NCBI GenBank assembly: GCA_032718475.1
Contig: JAUCBJ010001825.1
Coordinates: forward strand, 1-64,000
Length of the DNA stretch: 64,000 nucleotides
Direction of reading: 5' to 3'
Source: Nemertoderma westbladi
Lineage: Eukaryota > Animalia > Xenacoelomorpha
The notes under the pieces were generated by a model. It saw only the letters and a list, made by a program, of their open reading frames with translations, ran no database searches and was not told the DNA's origin. The translations under genes and the position numbers were made by a program. Positions 31,063-54,141 of this stretch are shown one piece after another; position 1 is the first letter of the stretch, and each line of letters starts with the position of its first letter.

Positions 31063-33383
31063 GGGGGGGGGGGGGGGGGGGGGGGGGAGGGGGGGGGGGG
31101 GTAGCGCATTTTCTGACCAAAACGTCGAATTTTTGAAACATATCCTATCTGATGCAGAATTTCATGCTGAATCCAAATATGGAAACCGTTTTCCTATATC
31201 TTGCGTAGTTTTCGAGATATCTGGGATAGAAGATACTGGCTCCGATATATCGCGATATCGGTAAACAGATGAAGTTAGGGGTTTGCATTCAATTTCTGCC
31301 ATTTTCTGTGCTCAGTGGTGCCAATTGGATGTCTCCACGAGAAAGAGCACAAAATTTTAATTGGGAAGGTATTTTTTTATGATTATTGGACCTACTTGTC
31401 AGTTAATAAGACAACTTCAAGTCTCCGGAATGAAGACGGGACTCGAATAAGCGACTCTGCGGTCTTTGCGTGATTACACGGAATAGACTTATCGGCCATC
31501 GGAGATCTTCAAAATGTATAATGTTCGCGCTTTCAGACCTTTGGCAGTTTAACCCGCCAAATTAGGATGTCTTCTAGATAATAAATCGCTTTTAGCCTCT
31601 GACAAGTATTTTATTCACTACACTAGTCGAAACCAATCTGTGCGCGATCATTCACCCGCTGGATATACCCGGGAGATTGGGTTCGACGGCTTAATCGTAT
31701 TGCTATGTAAGCCTACTGTATTATTCGACTGATCGTATTATATAATCTCTGACAATATTATTCACCTTCGGGAATATTAACAGTTCCTTTAGGACGTGGC
31801 GCTCTATCTATATAAACAGAGTTATGACTTAAACTACTCACAACGATATGGCTTAGTTATAATTCACATATATGGCGCATTCTTTAGGAAATGCTTCGTT
31901 ATCAGTCTCACTCATACACAATGCTGCACAATACTGCACACTAATCTGCCGATCTTCACTGATTTTAGTCACATATAAAAGGAACACGGACCGAATCATG
32001 TAGGGTCTATCAAATAACATTAGATTCACTTCAAACCACTTTAACATAAGTCACAATCGTTATATGTAACCTTTCTCTCTTACCTTCGGTATATCAAGAA
32101 TATTGGGTTTCGGGGTTATTTATCGTTATTCCAAATATAATAATTCATCAACCATATTATGAAGAACTGACAGTAAATAGCAGTATAACAATATAAAAGT
32201 ATGCACAGGTATGTTTGATTAGGTATGTTGAGTTGCATGAGTTGTGACAATCAGTCAGTTTTGTTATGATAACGGATATATGTCCTTATAATTAAGCCTA
32301 CTAGTGTAAGGCAGAGCCGTTCTTCCTGGCTTAGAATCACCAACAACACTAAAAACTGATAAGAATAACCTTATTTACAAAGGCTTCCACCCACCACAGA
32401 GAATGAGCATACAGATAGGAAAATTCAGTTCAGTAGATCTGTGATAGGTCGAAATCAAAACCAACTCAAATCCTATTGGCAGGTACAGAAAGCAGGGCTG
32501 TGGGGCAACCTTCCCAAGCTGGTTGGACGATCAAACATAGCCCAGATCCCTTCGCACAGTAAATCAGCCAATCAGCCGGTAGCTTGCACTATTCGAGTTA
32601 GAGATCCCTTTTAGAGTATTCCAGCGCCTTGGGGGGAACTGGTTAGCAAAGCAAACGAATCAGTTATCCCACAAAAGCTTTTACATATAATCTCCAGTTC
32701 TGGTGGTCGTACGAAGTTGGTTTTAGGCTCATTCGAAAGCTCTTTTCTTAGAGAACAAAGTTACCATTTGATTTAAGACAAAATGGTTGTGAATTTAACA
32801 TGAATTTGGGTAAAATATGCTTTGCAAATTTTGTTTAAGTTATGATTGCTCAGGAAGCTTTCAAGAGTTTGCCAAACCAAATGGTAACTTTGGTCTCTGA
32901 GAAAAGAGCTTTCGAATGTGCCCAAAATGAACTTTGTACGAACACTAGAACCGGAGATTATACATTTTGAAGATCTCCGATGACCAATAAGTCTATTCCG
33001 TGTAATCCCGCAAAGACCACAGAGTCACTTATTCGAGTCCCGTCTTCATTCCGGAGACTTGAAGTTGTCTTATAAACTGATCAGAAGGTCCAATAATCAT
33101 AAAAAAATACCTTCTTAAGTAAAATTTTGTGCTCTTTCTCGTGGAGACATCCAATTGGCACCACTGAGCACAGAAAATGGCAGAAATTGAATGCAAACCC
33201 CTAACTTCATCTGTTTACCGATATCGCGATATATCGGAGCCAGTATCTTCTATCCCAGATATCGCGAAAACTAAGCAAGGTATGGGAAAACGGTTTCCAT
33301 ATTTGGATTCAGCATGAAATTCTGCATCAGATAGGATAAGTTTCAAAAATTCGTCTTTTTGGTCAGAAAATGCGCTACCCCCC
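31063..33383. mobile_element. non-autonomous DNA transposon with ~550-bp inverted arms (Kolobok-like termini), interrupted by a solo LTR
   Basis: Left arm (31063-31521 plus 32686-32772) is the reverse complement of about 32875-33383. Termini are TTAA|GGGG..TAGCGCATTTTCTGACC and GGTCAGAAAATGCGCTACCCCCC|TTAG. Superfamily inferred only from TTAA plus GG termini. Confidence 0.8.
31522..32685 (-). mobile_element. solo LTR (1164 bp) with 5-bp TSD TATAA
   Basis: TG...CA termini; TATAA at 31517-31521 and 32686-32690; the host inverted-repeat arm resumes exactly after it. Related to the LTR at 1210-2440. Confidence 0.88.
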
Positions 33384-36819: not shown

Positions 36820-37482
36820 CTATAGACGAGGTGTGGTGAGTCTACAACATCGAATAGCACTCCACTTGGCGGGATTACAACGCCACGTTGTACAGTCGTT
36901 TGATGCCCCATAACTGGTACACATACCGGTAGTGATGTAGCTTCCGCTGCAGGAACGATAGATCCCGTTATTAAAACACTTCCATACGCAATCAGACTGC
37001 TGGATGGGCAGAGTCCGTAACGCTTTGTTCAGATATCCAGTAAGTTTGCTGAAAATCTCGCTGTTTTTTCTGAGATTTAGCGCGATTTCTGCCACAAGTT
37101 GACCATGGAGTTCGAGCGATTCGAGAAAGTTTGTATCGTTGGCCGAAAGATCCACAATCTCATTCATTAGAGTGTCGATAAGTCCGTTAACTTCATCGAC
37201 TTTATTTTGTAGGTCGTTACGAACGTCATCCAAATCTTCATCCTTCACTAGTTTCTCAGAATGAACAACGAATTCCTCATTCAATGACGTGATCATGTGA
37301 TCAACCTCATCGAGTTTCATTCTCTCTAAATCGAGTTGGAACTTTAGATCGGATATGGTTGTTGAGTTCATGTCGTCGATGACCTTGGCGTTCCAGGCGA
37401 ATCCATGGAATACGTAGGCCATACAGCAGGCCATAACGAGTACCAGACACCCAACCAATGCTAGGAAGACTCGGAATCTCAT
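36820..37482 (-). CDS. 220-aa protein: N-terminal signal/anchor, coiled coil and Cys-rich C-terminal head; function unknown
   Basis: Uninterrupted ORF in unique sequence with ATG, a hydrophobic segment at aa 5-30, a heptad-like acidic helix at about aa 45-155, and a C-terminal domain with 8 Cys ending WSAIRCCRL. Confidence 0.72.
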   Translation of the reverse strand: MRFRVFLALVGCLVLVMACCMAYVFHGFAWNAKVIDDMNSTTISDLKFQLDLERMKLDEVDHMITSLNEEFVVHSEKLVKDEDLDDVRNDLQNKVDEVNGLIDTLMNEIVDLSANDTNFLESLELHGQLVAEIALNLRKNSEIFSKLTGYLNKALRTLPIQQSDCVWKCFNNGIYRSCSGSYITTGMCTSYGASNDCTTWRCNPAKWSAIRCCRLTTPRL

Positions 37483-38737
37483 GAAATGACATTCAAACCC
37501 ATTGCGACCCCCTGTGTCGTAATCACCATAATCACTAAAATAATTAAATATTTTATAAAAATGTAATTGTTGTTAGTTTGGCTCGTACCAGTAGAGAACA
37601 GACTAAACTCAACCAATTTAAATTAACTTTACCTTCTTAATTAAGGGGGGAACTTAAAAAATCAGACAAGCCCTTACGTTTTACGCAATAACTCGAGTTT
37701 GAGAAAAGATGTGTAAAAAACTGCTTGCAGATATTTATTCCACAGTATTACTGTACAAGAAACTAAGAATTAATCACCAAATTTTGGTTAGTTTAGATTT
37801 CATTTTAGGTACATTTGTAGTGTTACGCCATTTGATAATGTTACCCCAGTGCTGGCCTACCTTTCGCCGCTCTCAGATGACACAATGGTTCTAGGCTGGT
37901 TGTTCGGCTGATATTCCGGTGGTGGCGGTTGGTATGGTGGAGGGGGGTCGAATGGTTCCACTATGATCAAGGAGTCCACAGGAATTGGGGAGGGTTTAGA
38001 GTGCCTGAGTGGTATGTCAATAGGTCCAACCTTCCTTTTTATATTCAAAGCATTCATCTCCAAAGTTATAAGAAGAGCGGATATTTGCTTTAATTTGGGG
38101 CTAGGCAATAAATTGTTATAAATTAACGAATTATTAGTATGAAAATAAGTTATTTATCATTTCTAAACATCGTTTGAATGATAATCCGTGAACATAGATT
38201 AAGAAACACATTTGGTTTTTATGATGAAATTTTATTTTATTACTTATATTTTATGGTTTTTAGAAACTTTACGATACATAATTAGTAATCGACTGCTAAC
38301 ATTGTAAGGTTCTCTGCGACCAGATATAATTTATCCTTCCACTACGAATAACATAAATAATAGAACAAAATTAAAAATATTAAATATAATGTTATTACAT
38401 ATATTGGTGTCAAAAGAAAAGAGGGATTACATATTTTCTACAACACAAGTTTTACTGCGTTAGTTAGACCAAAAGAGTCGCACTTAACTTATATTGTATA
38501 ATCATTGTTTATTCAAATGGAATCCTAGCGAGTGATTTAACAGGTACAAAATGCATTAAATGTAAGTGGAATTTACCCACCTTGCCAACACTGCAGGCGG
38601 TATCATACATTTAATTACATACCCGTACTGTAAACACAGGTCACCACGGCGAGGGGTATAATCACATGTTGAATATATATTAATCCTTAATGTGTTGGCC
38701 TCTATCTCAATAGTATAAATAATAGAAGACAAAATGT

Positions 38738-39302: not shown

Positions 39303-39557
39303 ACCTTGGAAGGGGAACCAGTCCAACCACACCTCACCTTTACTCAAAGGCAGCATTGTAATGAGCCAGACTAATAAGAAGCTCGGTTATTGTGTTTAGC
39401 TTACAAAATGATTGCCCGAGTACTTAATCATGATTCCATAGAATAATTAGCTAAATAATTTCTTTGAGGCATTGACATGATAAATTAATATTTCAGTATC
39501 AATACTATCAGCATAAGTAAGGTAAATTTTAATATTTCTTACAAAATGAGTGGCCCC

Positions 39558-40124
39558 TGTGACGGGATCCACGGAGGATCCCGGTTTATCCGGTTTTCAA
39601 TCTACGCGTCCCCGCCGTGTGTGAAAGGTAAAAGAGTTTATTGATCGTCGTATATAGTTCTCCGGGTATAATAGTATAAGATGAAATATAAATGACACAG
39701 AATATAGGATATAATGTTGATAGTAAACGGAAGACGGGTGACGGTAATTAAAGTCCCGGTACTTCCCTAGCTAAACTAACCTAACTATGCACTGACTAAA
39801 TGACACACTGACTAGATGATTTGCTGTACTGATAATATATATTGCACGGTTGGCCGTTGTTACATTACTCAGCCGGTGCCTTCCCCCCATTGGCTAATAA
39901 CCCTGTTGTCGCCCTTTGCCTCCCTTGGAGTGTTTCCCCTCACTCCTGTTACTCTCTCTCTCTCTCAGGGGTGTAACCCCTGACCCCTATTGTGTGTGTG
40001 TGTGTGTGCTTTCTCCTTCCCACTTTGTTGGGGTGACACGAGGTTGATTGCTCACCCTCGTGTTCCCCAATATTGCTTAACGGCTCACTTTATGGGGTGG
40101 TTAGCGGAATTGAATACGCTAACA
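39558..40124 (-). repeat. 3' LTR of the BEL/Pao element
   Basis: Direct repeat of 53014-53580, with only about three substitutions seen by eye. AATAAA on the minus strand at 39637-39642. Confidence 0.96.
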
Positions 40125-40133
40125 CTCCCCCCC
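40125..40133 (-). other. polypurine tract (plus-strand primer)
   Basis: Minus strand G-run plus AG immediately before the TGTTAG start of the 3' LTR. Confidence 0.8.
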
Positions 40134-40847
40134 ATGCTATCTTCCCGGTGAGAAGATAGCATCCACCTCTAGTGGGCTACAATTCCGCTGGATCCCGATC
40201 TAGTATCGGGTGTGGGGTGGAACTATTTTCTTTTGGAGCCGGCTTTCCAGGCCGCTCCCTATGGGTATGATAATGCTACCCCGTTTGCCTGGTGTCCCGT
40301 GTCGGGCCGATCGTGCGCTCCTCCCACACGACTTTTGTTTCCCCAACAATTTCGCCACTCCAACTCTACTCTGTTTTCACCCTGACCCTCCTCTACTTTT
40401 CCTCACTTCGGCTCTAACTCTCGGGCTTCCCTGCCCCTCACTCAGCCTCTTATTCCTCCCCCCCCCCACACTTGAATTGCGCTCGCACTCTCTCTATACT
40501 CCGCACTCTCTCCGCACTACAACTCAACCTCTTTCCTGACCACTCACTCCCGACGAGTTTCACCCCCCCCCCCCCTTTTGTGCCGTCGCACTCAAGAAGC
40601 GTGATGTCGTCCAATGTCTCGTCCGTGGTAGTATTATAGTCCATTGGTCCCCAGTCCCAGCAGCTAATTGAGAAAGGTTATATGACTATAGTACTTACTT
40701 CGAATATATATATTTCGTTACTAGATTACTGATTGCTACGTACGTACATACAAATTGCACTTATTCGATTATTTTAGATTACTTGAATTTGTACTTAAGA
40801 GTTAGCACGTCTCACGTGGTGCCTTCCAGGCATGTTACACCGAAGTC

Positions 40848-43426
40848 TTAGTTCGTTACACCAGCCTTTGGGAACCACCTCAAGTCTTTCCCTTTGTCGT
40901 CCTCCTCCCTGGGTCGTTTCCTGGTCACCGCCGCTCCTCTGGTCTTGTCTGCTTTCTGGCTTCGGACTCTCGCCGTCACCTCCTTACTGATCCCGGTCGT
41001 CGACTCCTTGGGTGCCGGTGTTATTAGCTCCCGGTATCGCTTCGCGGGTGGCCCCTCCGAGTGGCCCTGTTGTCTCCCCCTGGTGACGTCCCATAGGATC
41101 ATCTTCATTGCCCGCGGCACATGCTCCGCCAAGAAATCCCTAAACTCTCCTCTACTCCGTGGCGTCCACCTATCCAAATACCTCTGCGTATTTATCACTC
41201 CGGCATATGATGCCGCCGTCGCCACTTCCTGGTAGGTAAACGGAAGCCTCCGTTTGATAATCTCCATGTGAGCTTCCTGATTGATGTTAAAGAAGCCCCA
41301 CCGGAACTCCTGGGCCTTCATGCGTTGCCGAGTCATCGCCCCAACGTTGGCCCACTCCTCGAAGATCCTAAACTTCTCTTCGTCGTCCATCCAGTCGCAC
41401 TGGCGTCCGTAATGTCCCCGAAAGTTACATTTCGAACATCGGTTATGCAACCGTGGACATGCCCCCATCCTGTGGCTCGACTCGCGGCAATAGAGACAAC
41501 TAGTCCCTTTCTGGAACCGGTACAAACAGCTCCTTTCCTGGTGGGTCTGTCTCCCACAGTAGTCGCAGCCGAGTACCAATGTCTCCCACCCCACGTCGTC
41601 TTTCATCCCAAGCGATCTCTGCGGTCTGTGGAGTCGCTGGTAAGCGAACTTCCGGACGTTAGTGTCCCTATCTACGTCGATCTCCTCGCCCCTCTCGGGC
41701 ATCGTCTCCCCGAATACTACCCGTGGTGCTGTCCCCGGTTACTCGCCCAACCTGATAGTGCTCCCCGCGAAATCCATCGCTGGCTCCCCGTGCACCCAGG
41801 CCCGCTTGCCGGGTCTATCCCAGAAGGCCCTCGCCCCACTGGCCGTCACCACCCTCCCGCCAACCCAGTCTGTGTCCGAGTGGCCGATCCTCCCGATGGG
41901 CGGCATCTCTCCGAACTCCTCGTCGTCTTCGTCCTCCTCTGGCAGTGGCTCCAACCCCGGTATCCCGGTGGACCCACTATGTCCCTTCCCGCCTTGGCTC
42001 TCGCCCGTAGCTCTCCATCCCTCTAGCTCCCCTAGCTTCCTTAGCGGCTGGTCGCCCTCGGCGCCAGCTGGTATGGGCGTCGCTTGCAATCCCGACGTCG
42101 ACTGCTTCGGTGATCCCACCGTCCATCCCAGTTCTCGCCCTAGAGATTCCCCCGAACTCCCTGACGAAGTCCAACGAAGTTCGTCTAAGCCCGCCTGTTC
42201 CTCGAAGCCGTAGCTCTGTGCCCTAGCTTCCTCCTCCCTTTCCTCTGCTTCTCTCCTCCCCCGTCTAGCGACTTCTTCCAGTCGCTTCGCCTCTCGTCTA
42301 TCCGTCTCTAGCTGCTCCCATCTCTGATACGGCGTATCTATCTCCCTGTCTACCAGATGTCGGCTGTTGTAGTACACCGACTCGCCCTTCAGCCCTGGGT
42401 GGTCTACCAGACCCACGAAAGCCGTCTTAAAGGCTCTTCTGTAGTATAGGGGTGATCCCGATAATAGGAATGCCGCTGGTTCCCTCTCAATAACCACGGT
42501 CATGAATAGGTTAAGCAAACCTATCATTATCCAGTCCTCCTGCAGGATATATCGCTTCTGATATACCTTTATCGCTCCTCTTCGGAATTGATACACCTCT
42601 TGTTTTCCCGGCCTCGCTCCCCACTTCAGCGAGTTCGCTAATTCTGCTCCGTACTCTTCTCTGAACTTCCCCCAGTCCATTGGTTTGTGACATACGAGCC
42701 CCAATAGCTGGCCCATCGCCACCGCTCCGCAATGGCCTGTGTTCTCGACTAGTCCCAACCCGTCTGGTGCTGTCATAGCCATGAAGACCGTCTGCATATC
42801 CAGATCGGACCGATGATTCTCTCTGCGTCGTCGCGAATCGCCGATCCCACTTTCGTTGTCGACTTCTCTCTCACTAGGACTTGCACCGCCCTCGGCAACC
42901 AGTTTAACTTCGGCCCTTCCTTCTTCCCATACGTTCCCAGGTCAAACAGGAAGATATCCCCATTTGGCGCAGCCAAATGTAGGAGTATGGTTCTGGCCGA
43001 TCCCGCCGATCCTCTCCTTGAACCCTCCTCGTCTTCCACGGTCCCTTCGTCGTCTAGGATCATGTATCCTCCCCTGTTGACGGACTCTATGAACCTCTTC
43101 CAATCTTTCCTCGGTGACTCTCTCGCATACTTCGGAATCCCGAACTTCGCCTCGTCTCCTTTCACCACGTAGTGGAAATGCTCGAAGATCGCGTTGTCCA
43201 GCGACGGCGTACCGTAGGTCCTGACCAGCCGCTGTTCGTGCACCTCCCTGAAGTGGTCCTGTAGCGCTCGTGCTGCGTGACCCTTTTCTAACCACTCGTA
43301 GTATCCCCTCGTCCTCTCTTCCGGATGCCTCTTGGTGAAATCCACCAGTATCTCCTTTCCTCCTAGCTCTGCCTTTCTCTTTCGCACAAGTTTGCTTGCC
43401 ATCTCGAACTCTGCCCGATCGCTCAC
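40848..43426 (-). pseudogene. accessory ORF of the BEL/Pao element: DEDDy 3'-5' exonuclease, charged helix and 3 CCHC zinc knuckles (~860 codons; one frameshift near 42805, one in-frame TAA at 41739-41741)
   Basis: ILDDEG (ExoI DxE), LLHLAAPNGDIFLFDL, LPRAVQVLVREKSTTKVGSAIRDD (ExoII), YQKRYILQED (ExoIII-like); CDYCGRQTHQERSC, CLYCRESSHRMGAC, CSKCNFRGHYGRQC. ORFs 41739..42797 and 40848..41702 share one frame. Confidence 0.75.
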
Positions 43427-43883
43427 CTTTGGGTGGTGTCTTACTAAGGCGCTATCGGATGAGTGATAGGTTTAGATGGTTTATTTCAGTTCGATGGCCT
43501 ATCTCTCTCTGAATTTCTGAGTTATCGCCTATTCTTTGCACTACTTAATTATGAAGCTACTAAATGTACCCTAAATCGCAATTTTGTCCGTTGCTTTAAT
43601 TATATTCCAGAATTTCCTTTTCTACTGTTACCATAATTTGCTAATTTTCAGCCCTATTCTTATTTTATTTTAATTTAATTTTAATTCTACAGTCCTACTA
43701 CTTACTATTGCCTATGGATTATTCTATTTTATAATCCACATTCTGGCCTACTCTGTGGGCTTGTGCAGTACAACAGTATGCGTCGCGTGGCCACACGATT
43801 TATCCAGCTGTACTCACATGCCCCCCTCTCGCTACTCACTACTGACTAATATCTATACTATATATACCCTTCTACCTCTATCT

Positions 43884-44348
43884 CTTACTAACCGGTACTA
43901 CGTACCCTCTAACTCCACTAACTAACGGTACTACGTACCCTCTTACTACTCTAACTCCACTGACTAACGGTACTACGTACCCTCCAACTCCACTAACTAA
44001 CGGTACTACATACCCTCTTACTACTCTAACTCCACTAACTAACGGTACTATGTACCCTCTTACTACTCTAACTCCACTAACTAACGGTACTACGTACCCT
44101 CTTACTACTCTAACTCCACTAACTAACGGTACTACGTACCCTCTTACTAACCTCTAACTCCACTAACTAACTAACGGTACTACGTACCCTCTTACTAACC
44201 TCTAACTCCACTAACTAGCTAATGGTACTACGTACCCTCTTACTAACTCCTCTAACACTCCTAACTAACTAACGGTACTACGTACCCTCTTACTAACTCC
44301 TCTAACACTCCTAACTAACGGTACTACGTACCCTCTTACTACTCTTAC
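43884..44348. repeat. ~30-45-bp degenerate tandem repeat inside the retrotransposon, between pol and the accessory ORF
   Basis: About 11 units containing ACTAACGGTACTACGTACCCTCTTACTA. Confidence 0.88.
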
Positions 44349-44505
44349 TATCTAACTTCTATCTGCCTACTTACTGCGTACCTAGTTATTATTATAAATA
44401 TATTTTTTTTTTAATTTTTTTTTATATGTGGGAAGGGCGTCTCGCCCTCAATCCCACCCCCCTCAGTCCAAAACTTGGACGACTAAACTCCTCTCTTACT
44501 CTACA

Positions 44506-45624
44506 CTAAGGTGCTCCCTCTAGAAGACAGCAATTCCCTACAGCCCTTCTGTAGGTTTTCCTGTCTTTGGCACCTATCTTGCCACCTATCCGCACTTCTA
44601 CCGATCGGACTCTTCCGTCCTCATCGGAGTAAGTGCCTACAACTCTCGCCAACCGCCACTGGTTGTTGATGATGGTATCATCCGTGAGGATCACGAGATC
44701 ACCCTCTTTCAGCTCTCTGTTCGTCTTCCTCCACTTACTTCTTCTGTGAAGCGTGGGTAGGTATTCCTCAACCCATCTCCTCCAATACTCTGCGCTTATC
44801 GCCTTAGCGACTTTCCAACTCTGGCGGGAGTGTATGTCATCTGGGTCTACACCCCGCATATCGATGGTCGCTGGCCTTTCCATTAGGAAATGGCTGGGCG
44901 TCAGCACGTCTAGTGACTCAGGGTCATCATTCTCTGGATATAGTGGTCTGCTATTAATGATACCCTCACACTTTGCAAGTACTGTCCTTAGCACGTCCTC
45001 CGTAACCATATGGGTGTTCATCAACTTCATCATCAGACGCTTCGAACTACCCACTAGTCTCTCGACGCATCCTAGGGTATGCGGTGCATACGGCGTCCTC
45101 CTCTCCCATTTTACTTGTCGTCGCCTCATGGCTGCCCTGACTTCCTCTCCTTCCAGGATATCCAAGGCCTCTGCCATCTCGTTCTCCGCCCCCATAAAGT
45201 TGGTCCCGTTGTCGGAGTATATTACTGCGATCGTCCCACCTTTGCGGTCTCTAAACCTCTCTAAGGCATTAATGAATGCCGATGCGGTTGCATCTTGGGC
45301 GAGTTCTATCCCTACCGCCCGCGTGTTATTACATACGAAGATAATACCGTAGCGTTTCTCCGTGTGCCGCATCACCTTGATCTTTATCGGCCCGAACATG
45401 TCCACACTGCAATGTGTAAATGGTGGGTCGTGCTGTCTTACCCTACTCGCCGGTAGTGGTGCCATCTCCTGTATGGCTCGCTCCTTCTTCGCTCGTCGGC
45501 AGGTCTGGCACTGCCCCACTACCGCCTTTACCTTCTTCCTCAACTGTTTGACCCAAAAGGTCCTCATTATCTCCGTGAGGGTTCGGTTGGTGCCCCTGTG
45601 CAATATCGACTTGTGGAGTCCCAA
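44506..45624 (-). CDS. BEL/Pao integrase (HHCC zinc finger, DDE core, DUF5641-like tail); fragment of a broken pol
   Basis: H-x4-H...CQTC; MAPLPASRV; PFTHCSVDMFGP; IYSDNGTNF; VERLVGS; INSRPL; LTPSHFL; WRRWVEEYLPTL; WRLARV. Confidence 0.95.
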   Translation of the reverse strand: MGLHKSILHRGTNRTLTEIMRTFWVKQLRKKVKAVVGQCQTCRRAKKERAIQEMAPLPASRVRQHDPPFTHCSVDMFGPIKIKVMRHTEKRYGIIFVCNNTRAVGIELAQDATASAFINALERFRDRKGGTIAVIYSDNGTNFMGAENEMAEALDILEGEEVRAAMRRRQVKWERRTPYAPHTLGCVERLVGSSKRLMMKLMNTHMVTEDVLRTVLAKCEGIINSRPLYPENDDPESLDVLTPSHFLMERPATIDMRGVDPDDIHSRQSWKVAKAISAEYWRRWVEEYLPTLHRRSKWRKTNRELKEGDLVILTDDTIINNQWRLARVVGTYSDEDGRVRSVEVRIGGKIGAKDRKTYRRAVGNCCLLEGAP

Positions 45625-45629
45625 ATAAT

Positions 45630-47395
45630 CTAGTGGACTATCGGCGATCCTGTGGGGATGATGATGGGCTTCGGTGGTACGACGATACTGTTGTTGTATC
45701 CCACCCTACAGTTCATTACTAGGATCCCGTCGTCATTAAGTTGTGGTGACAGCGTGATCAGCTCGCTATCCCGCCGGAGATGCTGTTGTTTACCGACGCG
45801 TTCCACCTCGTCGCCATAGTTCTTCCTTTGCTCGTAGCGGATGACTGCTTTGGCCGCTCCTTCCAGATCTATTGTCATTCTAATCTTCACGTCTTTGCCA
45901 ACTCCCCTGAGGAAATTCCCGAAGGCTCTCCAGTACGCCACTAATTTCTTGGTCTTGTACCAACTAGAACTGTAGCTAAGGAGTTTATCCGTCGGGTTAT
46001 CGCACAGTTCTCCTGGTTTTGGTTGCACGCCCCTAATCTCCCTCACCATCTGGGAGTATATCTCTTCTCCCTCTGAATCTCCCTCTTCTCCTTCTGACAC
46101 TACTTCTCCTGAGCCCGGGTCCACCTTTCTCATCGGCGGCCAGGCCTCCTTATCGCTCAGAAACTGTGGCCCGTGTTGCCACAATACTTCCTTCTTCAAG
46201 AAAGTGTGGCGTACTACGCCCCTCGATAACAAGTCCGCTGGGTTCTCGTCCGTTGGGCAGTAGTGCCACCTTTCCAGTTCTGTGGTCGCCCTTATTTCGT
46301 CCACTCTATTCGCGACGAATATAGGGTATCTCGTCCTTTCGTTATGTAGCCAACCAAGCACTACCATGGAATCCATCCAGTAGTGTGTCTCCACTATGTT
46401 GGGAATAGCATCCACTAGGTAGGCTGTAGCCCTAACTCCTAGTCTTGCAGCTGTCAATTCTAGTTTGGGAACTGATGCTGAATCTGGTGGCGTTGACTTC
46501 GCCTTGCTGAAGGCGAGTCTGGGCTTGTGAGCCCCCTCTCGTTGTACTAAATAGAGTGCAGCTCCGTATGCCTCTAACGACGCATCGGAGAACATGTGTA
46601 GGTCCCGACTCGTCATGTCCCCATCCGGGAAATACACTCGTGGCATGCTGTATGTTCCCATCTGCTCCAGGCTCTCTGTCCACTTATACCACTGCTTTCT
46701 AATCTCTTCCGGGACCTCTGCGTCCCACTCATCCTTTAGCTTGTATACTCTCTTGAGTATCTGTTTCCCCATGACTAGTAGTGGGGATGCTAGGCCTAGG
46801 GGATCGTATATCCTTGCTATGTACGACACATAGCCCCTCTTTGTGTGGATATCTGTGCCCTCCTGACTCAACTGGTACTTCAGTTCATCCATCTCTCTGT
46901 TCCACACGATTCCCAGTGCCTTCTGTTGAGACTCTATTCTCATGTTCGCCATGTCCTGCCCCTTGGCTGTTGTGGGATTATCCATGGTCGATCCTGGTCT
47001 CTCATCTTTTATCGCCTCGATAAATTCCTTCAAACTGGATTGGAATTTGGTTAGGTTGAAGCCGGATCCTTTAAGGATGTCGCTAACCTCGCGCCCTGTG
47101 TCCAGTAGCTCCTTAACCGTATTTCCAGACTCCATCCCGTCGTCTACGTAGAAGCTGCGTCGAATCATATCGACGGCTCTAATACTGTATTTATCTTCCT
47201 TTCCCTTTACTGTGTCTCTTACGGCCATAGTCGTCGTGAATGAAGACGACTTGGCTCCCATATTCTGTACTATCATCTTGTACATCGGTATTGTCGACGG
47301 TTCCACGTCACCATTGTACCACAAGAAGCGTTGACTGTCGCTATCCTCTTCCGTCACACGGACTTGGTTGAACATGCCTTCTATGTCACAGGTAA
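45630..47395 (-). CDS. BEL/Pao reverse transcriptase and RNase H; fragment of a broken pol
   Basis: CDIEGMFNQV, SFYVDDG, KALGIVW, IYDPLG, LHMFSDAS..AYGA, VPKLEL, YWMDS, FVANRV, NPADLLSRG. Confidence 0.95.
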
Positions 47396-49909
47396 GGCGT
47401 GTTTCCCATTCCTGAATCTGAGTAGGACCTCTATCCCTGAGTTGTATATGTTGGGACCCTCTAGCAGATAGTCGTTTAGGCATTTCCCGTCGGTCTTTGC
47501 CGATGCGTCCACTACCATCCGCAGTTTACCTTTCTTCGGATCTAAAGCCACGTGGAGTGGCAGGTAATATGTCCTGTCCGTGTTCGGTTCGTCGACCGGT
47601 AGCTCCACGGCCCATCCCTTCTCGACGTACTTTCTGATTGTCTTATGAATGTACTCATTCTTTTCGGGGCTCCGTTTTAACGTCTGTTTCAACTTACGAA
47701 GCCTCGTGAGTACCATTCCTTTATTATCGGGCAGTGGTAGCTTTGGTAGCTTCCATACCATTCCTATGGTATACCGCCCCTCGTCGCATCTCATAGACTC
47801 CTTTACGCTCTGCTGAGCCTGCTTGTCTTCCACCGAGGTCCCGACCCCGGTTTCCTTTAGTCCCTCAAAATCTTGCCTGAGCAGTCTCTTGAGCTGTTCC
47901 TCCGCTCTCTCATCCCCCATTTCTTGCATAGTTCCTGCGAACATGCATCCTGATGTCTCCGACATCCTAAATGGTATCTTACTCTTAATTGGGCCACTCA
48001 GCGCCCACCCGAACGGTGTCAATATCGCCACCGGGTCACACTGCCTGTCTTCGCCGAAGACCATTTGCATCCTTTCGTGGGCCGTCGGGCAGTCCATTCC
48101 TACTATGATGGATACCTTCCTAACGTCCACCTCTGGGATTGAGAAGTCGATATCATCCAGGAATTTATATTGTTCGACCTCGATGTTGGTTGGCCGCCTG
48201 GCATTGATATTTATTGACTCTATCACTTGGATGGGGTCGATGGTCGCCCCATAGTCGCATCCCGGTGCCACCGCTGCAATCGCGCACCGTCCGGTCCTCA
48301 TCTCCAGGACCTCATCTTTGTTAGAGATTGTTGTTACCGCCATTCTACTTGGCTTCGTTCTCAATCCTATCTCTTCGGCCACCCAATTTTCGATTAATGT
48401 GAAGGCAGCTCCACTATCAACCAGCATCAGTGTGGTCACTGATCGATTGCCTTCTCCAATCACTCGCACTGGTACTACCCCAAGTAGCACCGTTCCTCTC
48501 TTCTTCGCCCCTACTGTGCTCATTGCCATCGTTTGGCCTTTGCTTTGACCAAACTTGATTGGCGTCTCCTTGCATTGCCTAGCTCTATGTCCACTCATCA
48601 AACATCGCGAGCAGATCTCATTTCTTGCCGCGTATTCTACCTGATCTTCCCTGGGTAGCGCTTGCCAGTACCTCCAGTTCATGGTTTGATGAAGCGCATT
48701 TGTATGTAGCTGGCATTTGCTCTTTGGGTCGCAGCCGTCCTTGTACAGTGCATTGCGTATCGCAGTTGCATTTGTACCAAAGTCCCTACTATTCTTATTG
48801 TTTGGGTTCGGCCTACTGGGCGTACTGGGGTTATATTTATTTGTGTTGTTATTTTTCCCCTGTCCGCTCCATGATGTGGTCTTACCCCCGGCTACCTGTG
48901 GACTTGCAGTCCCCTGCGTCGCTGCGTATGGCAGTGATTGCCTGAGCTTTGGTAATGCGTTTGACGTGTTATGTTCTGGTTTCGGTCTATGGTAATCGGT
49001 TCTTGGTCCCTTTCCCAGGCTGTCCTCACTATAGACTGGGTCGGTTATTAATTCGGCTTCGTAGTTTAAGAAGCTCGACATTTCTTCTAAACCCGGTTCC
49101 GCACCCTTCCTATCTCGAGTGGAGAAAGTGTTTTTTCTCCACTTGTTGCGCAGCCACATCGGTAGCGCCTGCGCTATCGTGGTGATGTTGTTGGACGCGT
49201 TGAGTTCGTATGGCGAGTCTAGCATCTTTAGCACGATTAGCGCCTTTTCGACCTTGTTCGCGAACGTCTTAATGCTAACGGGATTATCCTGTAGGCCACC
49301 CGATGTTATGCCCCTCAGGGTTTGCTGGATGATCTTGGCCGGGTGCCCGTATTCCCTGTCCAGTGCCCGCCATGCCGTCGTGAAACCGCCCTCTATGCCC
49401 TGGTATTGCCTCACGATGTCGTATGCTGGGCCTCCTGTATATACTTGCAGATATTTTAGGCACTCCGCCTGCGTCAAGGTCTTTGTTAGTATTTCATTAC
49501 TATACATGCGCCAAAACTGCAGATATTCTTCCGGCCTACTCCCATCGAATTTAAACGGTTCCATGGGTGGTAACTCGATCCTAGTTTTTAACGCATCGAT
49601 CAACGTGGCCATCCCCATCGCCTGCGCTTCCAATGGGTTTGATGGATGTTGTATAGTTTCTCCTGTTGGGTGTGGTCCGTCCGTCCTATTTTCTACCTTC
49701 CTCTGGCTTGGGTATATCATTGGGGGTAGCGGCCCCCTCCATATTTCTGTGTTGCATGATCTATTTTCATCCAAGGGTCTCATTGTTCTTGCTCCTATCG
49801 GGGTATATTGTTGATATTGTGATGGGGGAATGTCACCCTGTCCCCCCCCCCCCCCCCCACCGGTATGTTTGGTACTGGGGTTGATGTTAATATATTGGGG
49901 CCCATGCAC
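47381..49909 (-). CDS. BEL/Pao gag core (DUF1759-like), zinc knuckles, aspartic protease and start of RT
   Basis: FKFDGS..EYLQFW, CSRCLMSGHRARQC, LVDSGA, YYLPLHVA, KLRMVVDASA, CLNDYLLEGP, VLLRFR. A 1-nt frameshift near 47393 joins it to the RT frame. Confidence 0.93.
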   Translation of the reverse strand: MHGPQYININPSTKHTGGGGGGGQGDIPPSQYQQYTPIGARTMRPLDENRSCNTEIWRGPLPPMIYPSQRKVENRTDGPHPTGETIQHPSNPLEAQAMGMATLIDALKTRIELPPMEPFKFDGSRPEEYLQFWRMYSNEILTKTLTQAECLKYLQVYTGGPAYDIVRQYQGIEGGFTTAWRALDREYGHPAKIIQQTLRGITSGGLQDNPVSIKTFANKVEKALIVLKMLDSPYELNASNNITTIAQALPMWLRNKWRKNTFSTRDRKGAEPGLEEMSSFLNYEAELITDPVYSEDSLGKGPRTDYHRPKPEHNTSNALPKLRQSLPYAATQGTASPQVAGGKTTSWSGQGKNNNTNKYNPSTPSRPNPNNKNSRDFGTNATAIRNALYKDGCDPKSKCQLHTNALHQTMNWRYWQALPREDQVEYAARNEICSRCLMSGHRARQCKETPIKFGQSKGQTMAMSTVGAKKRGTVLLGVVPVRVIGEGNRSVTTLMLVDSGAAFTLIENWVAEEIGLRTKPSRMAVTTISNKDEVLEMRTGRCAIAAVAPGCDYGATIDPIQVIESININARRPTNIEVEQYKFLDDIDFSIPEVDVRKVSIIVGMDCPTAHERMQMVFGEDRQCDPVAILTPFGWALSGPIKSKIPFRMSETSGCMFAGTMQEMGDERAEEQLKRLLRQDFEGLKETGVGTSVEDKQAQQSVKESMRCDEGRYTIGMVWKLPKLPLPDNKGMVLTRLRKLKQTLKRSPEKNEYIHKTIRKYVEKGWAVELPVDEPNTDRTYYLPLHVALDPKKGKLRMVVDASAKTDGKCLNDYLLEGPNIYNSGIEVLLRFRNGKHALPVT

Positions 49910-52900
49910 CTATCCGCAATAATTCCCCCCTCCCCTGGGTATATGTTATGTCCTTGCATGCTGTAGTCATACTGCTGTACTGGTACCGGTATAGGCCTAT
50001 CAGCTTCTGGCCTACCTGCCGGTATGTACTCCGCGACTTCCGGGTTTAATCCTGTCGTCCGCGCTGTCCTATCGCCTACATTATTCCTGCCAGCATGGCC
50101 TATGGTATGTGCAGTAAGGCCTACAGTATGTCCCACAGTCTGTATGTGTCGCTCGGGATCGAAGTTTATTCTTCTCGAATAATCCTCCCCGCGGCTACCG
50201 TATTCTCGATCGGTAGCTATATCCCACCGGGAAGTTTCTCTTCGACCCCCTCCACTGCTCTCGTCCTCGTGCTGGTACATCGCATACCCCTCTATCGGCG
50301 CGTAGTGCGCCTCGTCAGGTCGCGCCTCTCCGGGGCGACGGCAATCTCCCGAAGTTCGACCCGACCGACTCTCCGTTCCCATCTCGACTATTGACGGCTC
50401 GCTATCCGTCCTCGCTCTCCTATCGTTCGCGGCGATACTTCTCCTACTATCTTCTCTTCTTCTCTTTCCAGTGCAGTATTCCCGCTCGTGAGATCTCTCG
50501 TTGATCTCCCGGTTAAACTCCACTGTTCTTCTTCCCTCTTCTGATCGGGCTCGACGCTTCGTCTGCCCTCTCGCGACGTCAACCTGCCTCTCTCTGCTCG
50601 ATCGCACGCCGCTGGGGATACTCGCAATCCCCCTATTACTCTCCGTCGCCGGGTGTTGCGGTTTACCTAGCTCAGCCCGCGCATTATCCGCCGACGCCTG
50701 TGGGACACTCTCTGCCCCCCCCCCTCTCGCTACTAATTTGTTGTGGTGGGGCACCCGTAGCCCCCCCCCCCCCCCCCCCGCCCGCCGCATCTTACTTCAC
50801 TATCTCTTACTTCGCTACTATACCCCTCTCTAGCCGATACATCAACCCTACTGCGGCTGGGTCTATTCACCCCCGCCTCTCCCTCTGCTACTGTGTGGCC
50901 TACCAGGCCTACCTCGGGTTGGCTCAACCCCGCTACCTCCTGCCTACCAACTACGTGGCCTACCAGGCCGCCGTCGGGTTGGCTTAACCCCGCCACTTCC
51001 TGCCTACTAACTACGTGGCCTACCAGGCTGCCGTCGGGTTGGCTTAACCCCGCCACTTCCTGCCTACGAACTACGTGGCCTACCAGGCCCCTGTCTGCCA
51101 GGTTGTGTATGTCCGACACGTTCACATTAATAGCACCACCGTGATTGTCGCCAATTTGGCCCTCTAGTTCACCTAAATTATTTTGTGCACCAAAATTAGA
51201 AACAGACTACATTATTTGAATTATTTTGCAAATTCGGATTTGGATCATTATTTAAATTATTTGGATTAATTTGTAAATTCGAATTCGGATTATTATTTAA
51301 ATTATTTGGGTTATTTGTATTTAAGTTTAAATTACTACAACTAGGTAAAATATTTCCTGGAATAAAGGTTTGGTTAGAATTATCCAATACGGTACTATTA
51401 ATATTAACGTCGTCTACTGTAGTATTATTATTACCCCCCCCCGCCCGTACGGTCACACCAGTCTCGGGTTTGTCGTGCGGTTCCTGTAAGTGGGGTATTA
51501 ATAAATGTTTCCTCGACCCTTGGTTCCTCGAAAGCAGTCGAGCCAGCGTCACTCTCTGACAACCCCATCTGCACCAGTTTCAGTTTGTGCTTCTGTCTGG
51601 TTTGGTACTGAATAAGCCCCCTCAGACGGGTATTTAAACCCTCCCTCACACGCTTCTCCTCTGCCATTCTCTCCTTATTCTCCCGCGCGCTCTGGTCGGC
51701 CAATTCCTTCTCTCTCGCAACTCTCTCCATTCGTCTCGCCTCCCTCGCCACCTCACGCTCTTTACTTTCCGCCTCACGCTCCTTACGTTCCGCCTCGCGC
51801 TCTTTACGTTCACTCTGCTCTCTCGCCTCACGCTCTTTACGTTCACTCTGCACTCTCGCTTCACGCTCTTTTCATTCACTCTGCTCTCTCGCTTCACGCT
51901 CCTCTTGTTCCTTCCTCCCTATTTCCTCGCACTCCCTAAAGCTTCTCGCGGCCTTCTCGGCCCTCTCTCCGGTCTCTCTAATCAGTTCCATTTCCTTCTC
52001 TAATAGCGCCCTCCCCTCCTCTAACTGTCTCTCTACTTCTCTCTGGTCTTGCGCCGCTAGATCGACTTGGTAAGCCAAATTTAATTCCATCACCCGTCTT
52101 TCTTTTGCGGAGGATGTAGCAGACTTATCGGTTGTGACGGATTCCCTCCGTCTTCCCGTCCTACTAACTTTCCCCCGCCTCCCGGAACTTCCTCCGACCG
52201 ACGAGACCGAATCTTCGGGGTTAACCTCGGATTCGCCCTCCTGCGGTCTCTTCCAACCCACTAATTTTACTCCCCGGGCATCGACTCAGTATGGCCGTAT
52301 GTACACTACACTAGCCTGCATACCCATACACTCCCATAGATCAGACAGTTCGCTTGCAACCCCTTTCGCTCTGTCCTCGGCTAGTTCTCTCTGCCCAAAG
52401 CACATTAGGTAGTTAAAATGTTCGTTCGACTCACCTAGTCGCCTTTTCAACTTCACCTGGTCTATCTTGGCCCCTCCTTTGGTCTCTTTAAGTAGTTTTC
52501 GGGTCGCGTTGTAGGCCCGCCGAAGTCGATCGCTGACCCCGACGTCCTCGTCGCCGATATCTCCTCTATCTCTCCGGGTCCGGCGTCGTACCGGCGGCCC
52601 CACCGTCGCCATTCCGGTGGGCCGTCCGTCGCCCTCGGCCTGTGGCTGGCCGGCGACATCGGCACGTCGACCGCCGTCGTGTGTCGACTCGTCTCTCTCT
52701 CCTCCCGACTCGTCTCTCCTTTCTCTCGACTCGTCTCTACTTTCTCTCGACTCGTCTCTTCTTTCTCTCGACTCACCTTCTGGTTCCAGACGGCCCTCCT
52801 CATCCTGAATTGCCGGATCGCCCGTTACCGATGGGTCCGGCGTCGTGGGTCTATACCGTCTGGTCGCGGCCTCGCGGATCGTTAGGTCTCCGTCCAGGGT

Positions 52901-52933
52901 CCGCGGCGGTGTTGTTTCTCCCATTTGACTCAT
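49795..52933 (-). pseudogene. long N-terminal gag extension (low-complexity, coiled-coil and repeat segments), split by frameshifts
   Basis: Chain of adjacent minus-strand ORFs starting with ATG about 80 nt after the 5' LTR. Contains VNPEDSVSSVG (typical BEL gag 'P.DSVS'), E/R-rich coils and an Asn-rich block. Several breaks fall at poly-G runs. Confidence 0.7.
50893..51090. repeat. 60-bp coding repeat (~3.3 copies) within the gag extension
   Basis: Unit TACGTGGCCTACCAGGC...GGGTTGGCTTAACCCCGCCACTTCCTGCCTAC; encodes VGHVV.RQEVAGLSQP repeats on the minus strand. Confidence 0.85.
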
Positions 52934-53013
52934 CTTACTGGTAGCTGGCAGTCAGTTTGGGCTGTTGGTCTTTAATTACTGTTTAACTAGGGCAGCAGTT
53001 TGGGTTTAATTAC

Positions 53014-53580
53014 TGTGACGGGATCCACGGAGGATCCCGGTTTATCCGGTTTTCAATCTACGCGTCCCCGCCGTGTGTGAAAGGTAAAAGAGTTTATTGA
53101 TCGTCGTATATAGTTCTCCGGGTATAATAGTATAAGATGAAATATAAATGACACAGAATATAGGATATAATGTTGATAGTAAACGGAAGACGGGTGACGG
53201 TAATTAAAGTCCCGGTACTTCCCTAGCTAAACTAACCTAACTATGCACTGACTAAATGACACACTGACTAGATGATTCGCTGTACTGATAATATATATTG
53301 CACGGTTGGCCGTTGTTACATTACTCAGCCGGTGCCTTCCCCCCATTGGCTAATAACCCTGTTGTCGCCCTTTGCCTCCCTTGGAGTGTTTCCCCTCACT
53401 CCTGTTACTCTCTCTCTCTCTCAGGGGTGTAACCCCTGACCCCTATTGTGTGTGTGTGTGTGTGCTTTCTCCTTCCCACTTTGTTGGGGTGACACGAGGT
53501 TGATTGCTCACCCTCGTGTCCCCCAATATTGCTTAACGGCTCACTTTATGGGGTGGTTAGCGGAATTGAATAAGCTAACA
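53014..53580 (-). repeat. 5' LTR of the BEL/Pao element
   Basis: Direct repeat of 39558-40124, lying upstream of the gag ATG at 52933. Confidence 0.96.
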
Positions 53581-54141
53581 GCCCCCACGACTAAAATATT
53601 AAATTTTCCCTCTTTATTTCCCTCTCTTTGATTTATTGATGTTTGGTTAAATTTCTTAAATACTGAGTTTGTGATACAGTAGAATCGCTCAATATTAATC
53701 TGTATCTCATAACTGAGCTTCGTGCTGCGCGAAGACCCCACGAACGTGCTCATACTGCCAAGAATTTTATTCCCAAAAGTCCAGTCTTTTAATGGAAAGT
53801 GTACCCCCTTCCTGTCCTGTATGTTATGGTTTGTACTCATCTGTTGCGAATTTAATCATTGTCAATAACATTACCAGTGTAGAATCCCAAATAGTTTATT
53901 CTAAAAATATTGGGATGAATATTTTTAGAAGGGATTTCTGTGAAATGTTCTTAAAATTATATTATTATGTTTACGTCCTTTGAATTGTCTACATTTTATA
54001 CTGTGGCATTAACAGGGTAGATTAATTTCATTACTGCATCGACATCGGCATAAGGTAATTTTTAATATTTATGTCAACTTGAGACGCCACAATCTGAATT
54101 AAAAAACACAAATTTTCAATCAATACCTGCCTGCCATCAAT

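Follow-up and report, generated by a model that had tools for sequence, protein, structure and literature searches.

A BEL/Pao retrotransposon on the minus strand of a 64,000-nucleotide stretch of the Nemertoderma westbladi genome (contig JAUCBJ010001825.1, hereafter the window) carries behind its integrase a third gene, ORF3, which is broken in this copy but is a single gene across the family. ORF3 is probably constrained, and ESM Atlas matches and the order of its motifs make it probable that its product contains a 3'-5' exonuclease fold of the WRN/RNase D (DEDDy) type, here joined to three zinc knuckles.

The element is about 14.0 kb long and lies entirely on the minus strand, as do its genes and motifs described below. 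It is bounded by a 5' LTR of 567 bp with TG...CA ends (53014-53580) and a 3' LTR (39558-40124) that aligns to it over 565 bases with 3 mismatches, and it is flanked by a 5-bp target-site duplication (39553-39557 and 53581-53585). A 5' gag-like region consisting of several broken, charged, low-complexity frames (49795-52951), in which a Pfam search found no match, is followed by Gag with DUF1759 and one CCHC, the protease and the start of the reverse transcriptase (47381-49909; Pfam and motif scan), then by reverse transcriptase and RNase H (45630-47525; Peptidase_A17, E 1e-40) and the integrase (44506-45705; Integrase_H2C2, rve and DUF5641). A spacer of 1.1 kb (43403-44505), which contains a 42-nt tandem array at 43907-44349, leads from the integrase to ORF3, and a polypurine tract (40125-40134) adjoins the 3' LTR. 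The best 120 listed relatives of the integrase are 33-41% identical to it, the nearest at about 40%, and contain the same Pfam families as the element. The PR-RT-RH-IN domain order and the Pfam families DUF1759, aspartic protease, Peptidase_A17, Integrase_H2C2 and DUF5641 agree in identifying the element as a member of BEL/Pao (Belpaoviridae), in accordance with the initial annotation. With that family (PMC8742986; PMC3118150, accessible part) it shares LTRs, the domain order, the Pao-specific Pfam families, the polypurine tract and the optional third gene. It differs in its size, 14 kb compared with 4.2-10 kb in the ICTV profile (PMC8742986), in a third gene that is not env-like, and in that this copy lacks a primer site for tRNA-Arg or tRNA-Gly. 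Gag-pol (44506-52951) is spread over several broken frames, yet no more than 3 differences separate the LTRs; the copy may thus have been defective and mobilized in trans, or G/C runs may have been assembled wrongly.

ORF3 is located between the end of the integrase at 44506 and the 3' LTR, and thus in the env position that had been attributed to it. Its three pieces (43402-42773, 42941-41739 and 41738-40848) do rejoin into one protein, with 850 residues read through from the ATG at 43402; the earlier figure of ~860 was counted from 43426. Following an N-terminal part of ~110 residues (43067-43402) are the probable DEDDy exonuclease domain (42500-43066), interrupted by a frameshift near 42805, a charged, helix-like stretch with a low-complexity linker (41600-42350), in which the stop codon at 41741-41739 lies, three tandem CX2CX4HX4C knuckles (41397-41567) and a C-terminal region (40848-41396). 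The knuckles, exact as initially reported, start at 41567, 41498 and 41438; shuffling of that piece produced one knuckle in 3 of 20,000 trials and two in none of the 20,000. Gag has a single exact CCHC compared with these three. A hydropathy scan revealed neither a signal peptide nor a clear membrane anchor in ORF3, the best 19-residue value being 1.46, which upholds the previous statement on this point and on the basis of which an env function was rejected. Strong splice-donor-like sites occur at 52776, in early gag, and at 43426, just before the ORF3 ATG; one pattern search of the spacer upstream of ORF3 found no splice-acceptor-like match.

Other copies of the family were represented by contigs from four public sequencing runs, which belong to three studies and to no more than three samples. 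When the element is divided into 30 bins, each bin is covered by these contigs, and ORF3 between 41690 and 43450 is covered by 4671, 2799, 2786 and 15 of them, depth being no measure of copy number. The stop codon at 41741-41739 is private to the copy in the window: in all four runs the other copies differ there in all of the depth. The frameshift near 42805 appears to be a short deletion that is likewise private, as loose ends occur there in three runs and one contig reads across it and contains additional bases that agree with the frame offset; an intron or a programmed shift was rejected because other copies differ at this site. Since the stop codon is private and the frameshift apparently so, the nuclease-like part and the knuckles form one frame in the family. 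An unrelated nested insertion, the possibility raised initially against family-wide presence, was rejected, as ORF3 occurs in many copies, no terminal repeats of at least 25 bp flank it within the window, and its contigs never run into unlike sequence in the three deep runs (fraction 0.00, compared with 0.3 in the fourth, for 41690-43450). No single contig spans both pol and ORF3 in another copy. Three runs also contain deletion derivatives, represented by contigs of low depth that skip either 42258-43385, and with it the exonuclease-like part, or 40831-41401, and with it the part that follows the knuckles.

Silent differences were counted at 39 of the 40 best-supported sites, the stop-codon site being omitted and 63 more sites lying beyond these 40, together with 6 from a comparison of the whole element. 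Among these best-supported sites, 10 of 14 differences in the N-terminal and exonuclease part are silent, against an expected fraction of 0.30 (p 0.002), whereas neither the linker (11 of 25, p 0.12) nor the knuckle part (2 of 6) reaches significance. Together with its presence across the copies, this identifies ORF3 as a retained, probably constrained third gene. Homologs of ORF3 were not found in protein sets at near length, at longer length or among all 50% representatives, nor in metagenome contigs, and searches of plasmids and phages at E values up to 10 returned chance matches only. None was found among 81 BEL loci, a result of little weight, since the profiles were weak and only 14 of the 80 metagenome loci had at least 2 kb past the integrase. 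Six related BEL loci (L218, L233, L236, L246, L260 and L267) have a long gag-like frame within ~1 kb after the integrase, which suggests units arranged head-to-tail in tandem.

The motif series from which a DEDDy exonuclease had been proposed is present in ORF3 and was located on the minus strand as ILDDEG (43060-43043), LLHLA (42985), KVGSAIRDD (42853-42827) and YILQEDW (42551-42531). ExoI (43060-43043) and ExoII (42853-42827) are in register with the DEDDy family. ExoIII (42551-42531), whose spacing had been called atypical, aligns without a gap, its Y-x3-E-x-W matching the Y-x3-D-x-W of WRN-like enzymes, so that the peculiarity is an Asp-to-Glu difference instead. The acidic residues of the domain are D-x-E, D and Y-x3-E (D-E-D-E); ExoIII is without the small residues of YAAxD, and the SNW motif matches poorly. 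In the ESM Atlas, the first piece of ORF3 matched PF01612 clusters at ranks 1 and 3 (0.94 and 0.92, with 183-184 shared features) and an unnamed, mostly rotifer cluster at rank 2 (0.93), and all ten of its best named matches belong to the same family or clan. The recognition value of 2268 lies under the 2300 mark, and PF01612 is present on only 13-22% of the members of those clusters. The C-terminal half had no match.

Searches of the ORF3 halves against Pfam, NCBIfam and PDB sequences yielded no exonuclease match. The two Pfam domains named in the initial annotation were accordingly not recovered at cut-off level, PF01612 having no match in the domain as searched in halves and zf-CCHC being represented on the knuckles only by zf-CCHC_4 at E 0.012, below the cut-off. 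The structure envisaged there for the DEDD site could not be used either: single-sequence AlphaFold2 models reached a pLDDT of 33 for the first piece and 38 for the knuckle and C-terminal part, and a structure search with the former gave no Z of at least 5, the best being 3.6. Two bacterial reference sets were assembled, one with 53 domains of RNase D, short RNase D and PolA, taken from 60 loci, and one of 55 WRN-like domains, 25 after thinning; a single WRN-like bacterial seed recovers WRN, EXD2 and mut-7 in the PDB. With a profile of the RNase D and PolA domains, ORF3 did not stand out from shuffles. With the WRN-like profile it scored higher than the remaining frames of the window (355 scored) and than 500 shuffles, at an HMM score of only 4-5 bits. 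The HHalign alignment keeps the order over 117 columns that begin at strand 2 and reach ExoIII, at a probability of 2.6% and a score of 20.6, compared with 13.6 +/- 2.3 in 60 shuffles, the best of which scored 20.4.

With eight hand-chosen blocks, which were picked post hoc, ORF3 scored 48.2, within the range of 33-80 spanned by true family members (n = 53), while no score above 21.0 arose in 600 shuffles and none above 19.5 among 120 BEL polyproteins, and none of 300 local shuffles reached the ORF3 score. In target-blind block tests, ORF3 was matched or beaten, for the WRN-like, short RNase D, RNase D and PolA sets in that order, by 7, 2, 1 and 56 of 150 shuffles when the ExoIII block was dropped, and by 10, 71, 14 and 185 of 300 shuffles in a second test, which makes these tests marginal (p 0.03-0.05 at best). 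In the second test, three of the four chains agreed on the nine residues assigned to ExoII, and two of the four on the nine assigned to ExoIII. The exonuclease claim of the initial annotation thus stands in so far as the ESM Atlas and the ordered motif alignment support it, whereas no standard cut-off was passed and the blind tests are marginal; we consider it probable that ORF3 carries the DEDDy fold predicted from these motifs.

The order and spacing of ExoI, the two strands, ExoII and ExoIII are those of the WRN exonuclease, EXD2, mut-7/Nibbler and RNase D (PF01612), from which ORF3 differs in scoring far under the cut-offs, in the Y-x3-E at ExoIII, in longer loops and in having neither helicase nor HRDC. 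Closer parallels exist among transposons. DEDDy ORF3s have been described downstream of pol in two LTR retrotransposons of bdelloid rotifers, Juno and Vesta, and also in Athena elements (PMC5408684, cited here and below from its accessible part), where they have DEED in place of DEDD, their activity is untested but is read as possible, and 3'-end processing was proposed for them; the findings are repeated for Terminons (PMC6431247, accessible part). In the same study the env- and GDSL-like ORF3s that were sequenced displayed mostly neutral variation (PMC5408684). As far as that source goes, the Juno and Vesta ORF3s resemble the one described here in occupying the env slot as an ORF of their own behind pol, in their DEDDy-type motifs with one Asp-to-Glu change and in the lack of a membrane anchor. 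In contrast, the rotifer elements are gypsy-like, as inferred from a GPY/F motif, and not BEL/Pao, and our element has the change at ExoIII and joins the domain to three CCHC knuckles within a protein of 850 residues. The Dada DNA transposons of Laccaria and Ectocarpus also encode a DEDDy domain, with a proposed function in 3'-end processing during transposition, but there it sits inside the DDE transposase (PMC3706591, accessible part). Because the rotifer ORF3s downstream of pol are published (PMC5408684), the concept is less new than was implied at first. An exonuclease ORF or a knuckle fusion in BEL/Pao was not found in the openly readable articles searched, though Repbase, GyDB, subscription journals and supplements may hold one, and the word exonuclease is absent from the accessible main text of PMC3118150 and PMC13524379. 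If the assignment is true, DEDDy ORFs, known from several unrelated transposon classes and of untested function in the literature, extend to BEL/Pao, in a high-copy family in which selection on ORF3 is measurable and with a knuckle fusion that points to an RNA substrate.

The function we tentatively favor for ORF3 is that of an enzyme which its knuckles hold on the RNA of the element and which trims 3' ends in the course of reverse transcription. ORF3 would then be a family-wide accessory gene for a putative WRN/RNase D-type 3'-5' exonuclease, the three zinc knuckles are predicted to tether the protein to element RNA, and the 3' ends trimmed would be those of element RNA or DNA. Enzymes of the DEDDy family trim tails back to structure. 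A self-primer that is cut or terminated past its duplex would retain a 3' tail that reverse transcriptase could not extend, and removal of the tail down to the duplex by the ORF3 enzyme would permit extension. A looser version of the same role would be the trimming of cDNA ends or RNA leftovers. That the enzyme is catalytically active, as its four acidic residues D-E-D-E suggest, that the knuckles bind RNA and what the enzyme trims are all predictions.

A candidate for such a primer is found in the LTR. The 40 nt that follow the 5' LTR of this copy are free of TGG, which precludes pairing with a whole tRNA 3' end; the 18-nt tRNA-Arg or tRNA-Gly primer site (PMC8742986), a typical trait of the family and not its sequence-based criterion, is accordingly missing from this copy. 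The primer-site position (52980-53013) is instead predicted to pair with LTR nucleotides 53234-53199 through 28 bp in four helices, up to the LTR boundary. Leader nucleotides 1-9 are the exact complement of 53207-53199, a match reached in 4 of 3000 LTR shuffles, and the extended pairing of 28 bp over 34 nt, a predicted structure whose length was picked post hoc, has an energy of -32.0 kcal/mol compared with -18.4 +/- 2.4 in shuffles, none of 400 reaching it. Duplexes of 18 and 25 nt are not significant by energy (45 and 64 of 400 shuffles), and 2 of 46 neighbouring 34-mers and 11 of 200 leader shuffles pair as strongly. The complementarity was seen in this copy only. The partner segment (53199-53234) is probably transcribed, because in the 5' LTR it lies between TATA-like (53297) and Inr-like TCAGT motifs (53288, 53267, 53251) and an AATAAA (53098), all of them consensus matches only, and it has the orientation of a primer, with the 3' end directed into the LTR. 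The pairing and its end at the boundary suggest self-priming, with a predicted duplex that could serve as a substrate for a trimming enzyme. Tf1/sushi elements are self-primed in this manner, their primer site being complementary to their own transcript and the pairing ending at the LTR boundary; in Tf1 about the first 11 nt and an RNase H cleavage are involved. The paired segment of our element is longer and lies some tens of nucleotides inside the likely transcript start. Self-priming is not mentioned in the accessible parts of PMC2774666 and PMC7879559, and a loose tRNA primer-site pattern, which matches 66 of 80 related loci, is uninformative. The most specific form of the proposal, a tRNA-independent BEL/Pao lineage whose own LTR transcript supplies the primer and which matures this RNA by a dedicated knuckle-tethered exonuclease, much like tRNA precursors are trimmed by RNase D, is improbable, and the only tie between enzyme and primer is their co-occurrence in one family. 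If the link is true, it provides a concrete reason for a retroelement to keep a trimming nuclease and constitutes a retrotransposon with its own primer-maturation enzyme.

Other explanations start from the same features. The Glu in place of Asp at ExoIII, the lack of the small YAAxD residues and the poor SNW match would fit a DEDDy fold that is kept as an RNA-binding scaffold and acts as an extra nucleocapsid-like chaperone, as would the three exact knuckles of ORF3 compared with the one of Gag, and inactive EXD1 and Maelstrom are precedents (PMC5408684). We regard this as rather unlikely, since ORF3 has an acidic residue at each of the four positions as well as the ExoIII Tyr and since the rotifer ORF3s (DEED), which also swap one Asp for Glu, are read as possibly active (PMC5408684). 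That ORF3 only resembles the family by chance, or is captured cargo without a role for the element, would agree with the lack of a cut-off-level match in any search, the marginal blind block tests and the domain-deleted variants at low depth in three runs. Independent methods that agree on the same domain and register, the excess of silent differences in the N-terminal and exonuclease part and a frame that is open in other copies count against it, and it is quite unlikely.

A counter-defence nuclease would trim or remove piRNAs, siRNAs or double-stranded RNA of the element and thereby weaken silencing by the host. The abundance of the family in contigs of the public runs, a matter of depth and not of copy number, is consistent with such an activity, as is the recovery of EXD2 and mut-7 among the solved relatives by a bacterial WRN-like query, but no result of the analysis bears on small RNAs, and the 3' ends of piRNAs are usually 2'-O-methylated and Piwi-bound, which counts against it. 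In the literature, viral DEDDh enzymes degrade double-stranded RNA to evade immunity (PMC3675627 and PMC13483370, accessible parts) and a role in silencing was raised for the rotifer ORF3s; however, in the accessible part of the latter report the DEDDy ORF3 has no clear correlation to copy number, and elements that possess it are still covered by small RNAs (PMC5408684). Counter-defence is therefore unlikely, and trimming of the element's own 3' ends by a knuckle-held enzyme remains the reading we prefer.

Outside the element, a minus-strand frame of 250 codons (36820-37572) has a hydrophobic stretch at its N-terminus, is heptad-like in the middle and rich in Cys at its end, and had no Pfam match below E 0.1. 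Long satellite arrays with 48-bp and 71-bp units extend on both sides, from ~2300 to ~26000 and from ~54000 onward. Inverted repeats of ~430-450 bp with 95% identity, at 31096-33383 and 1642-2440, probably belong to a DNA-transposon-like element.
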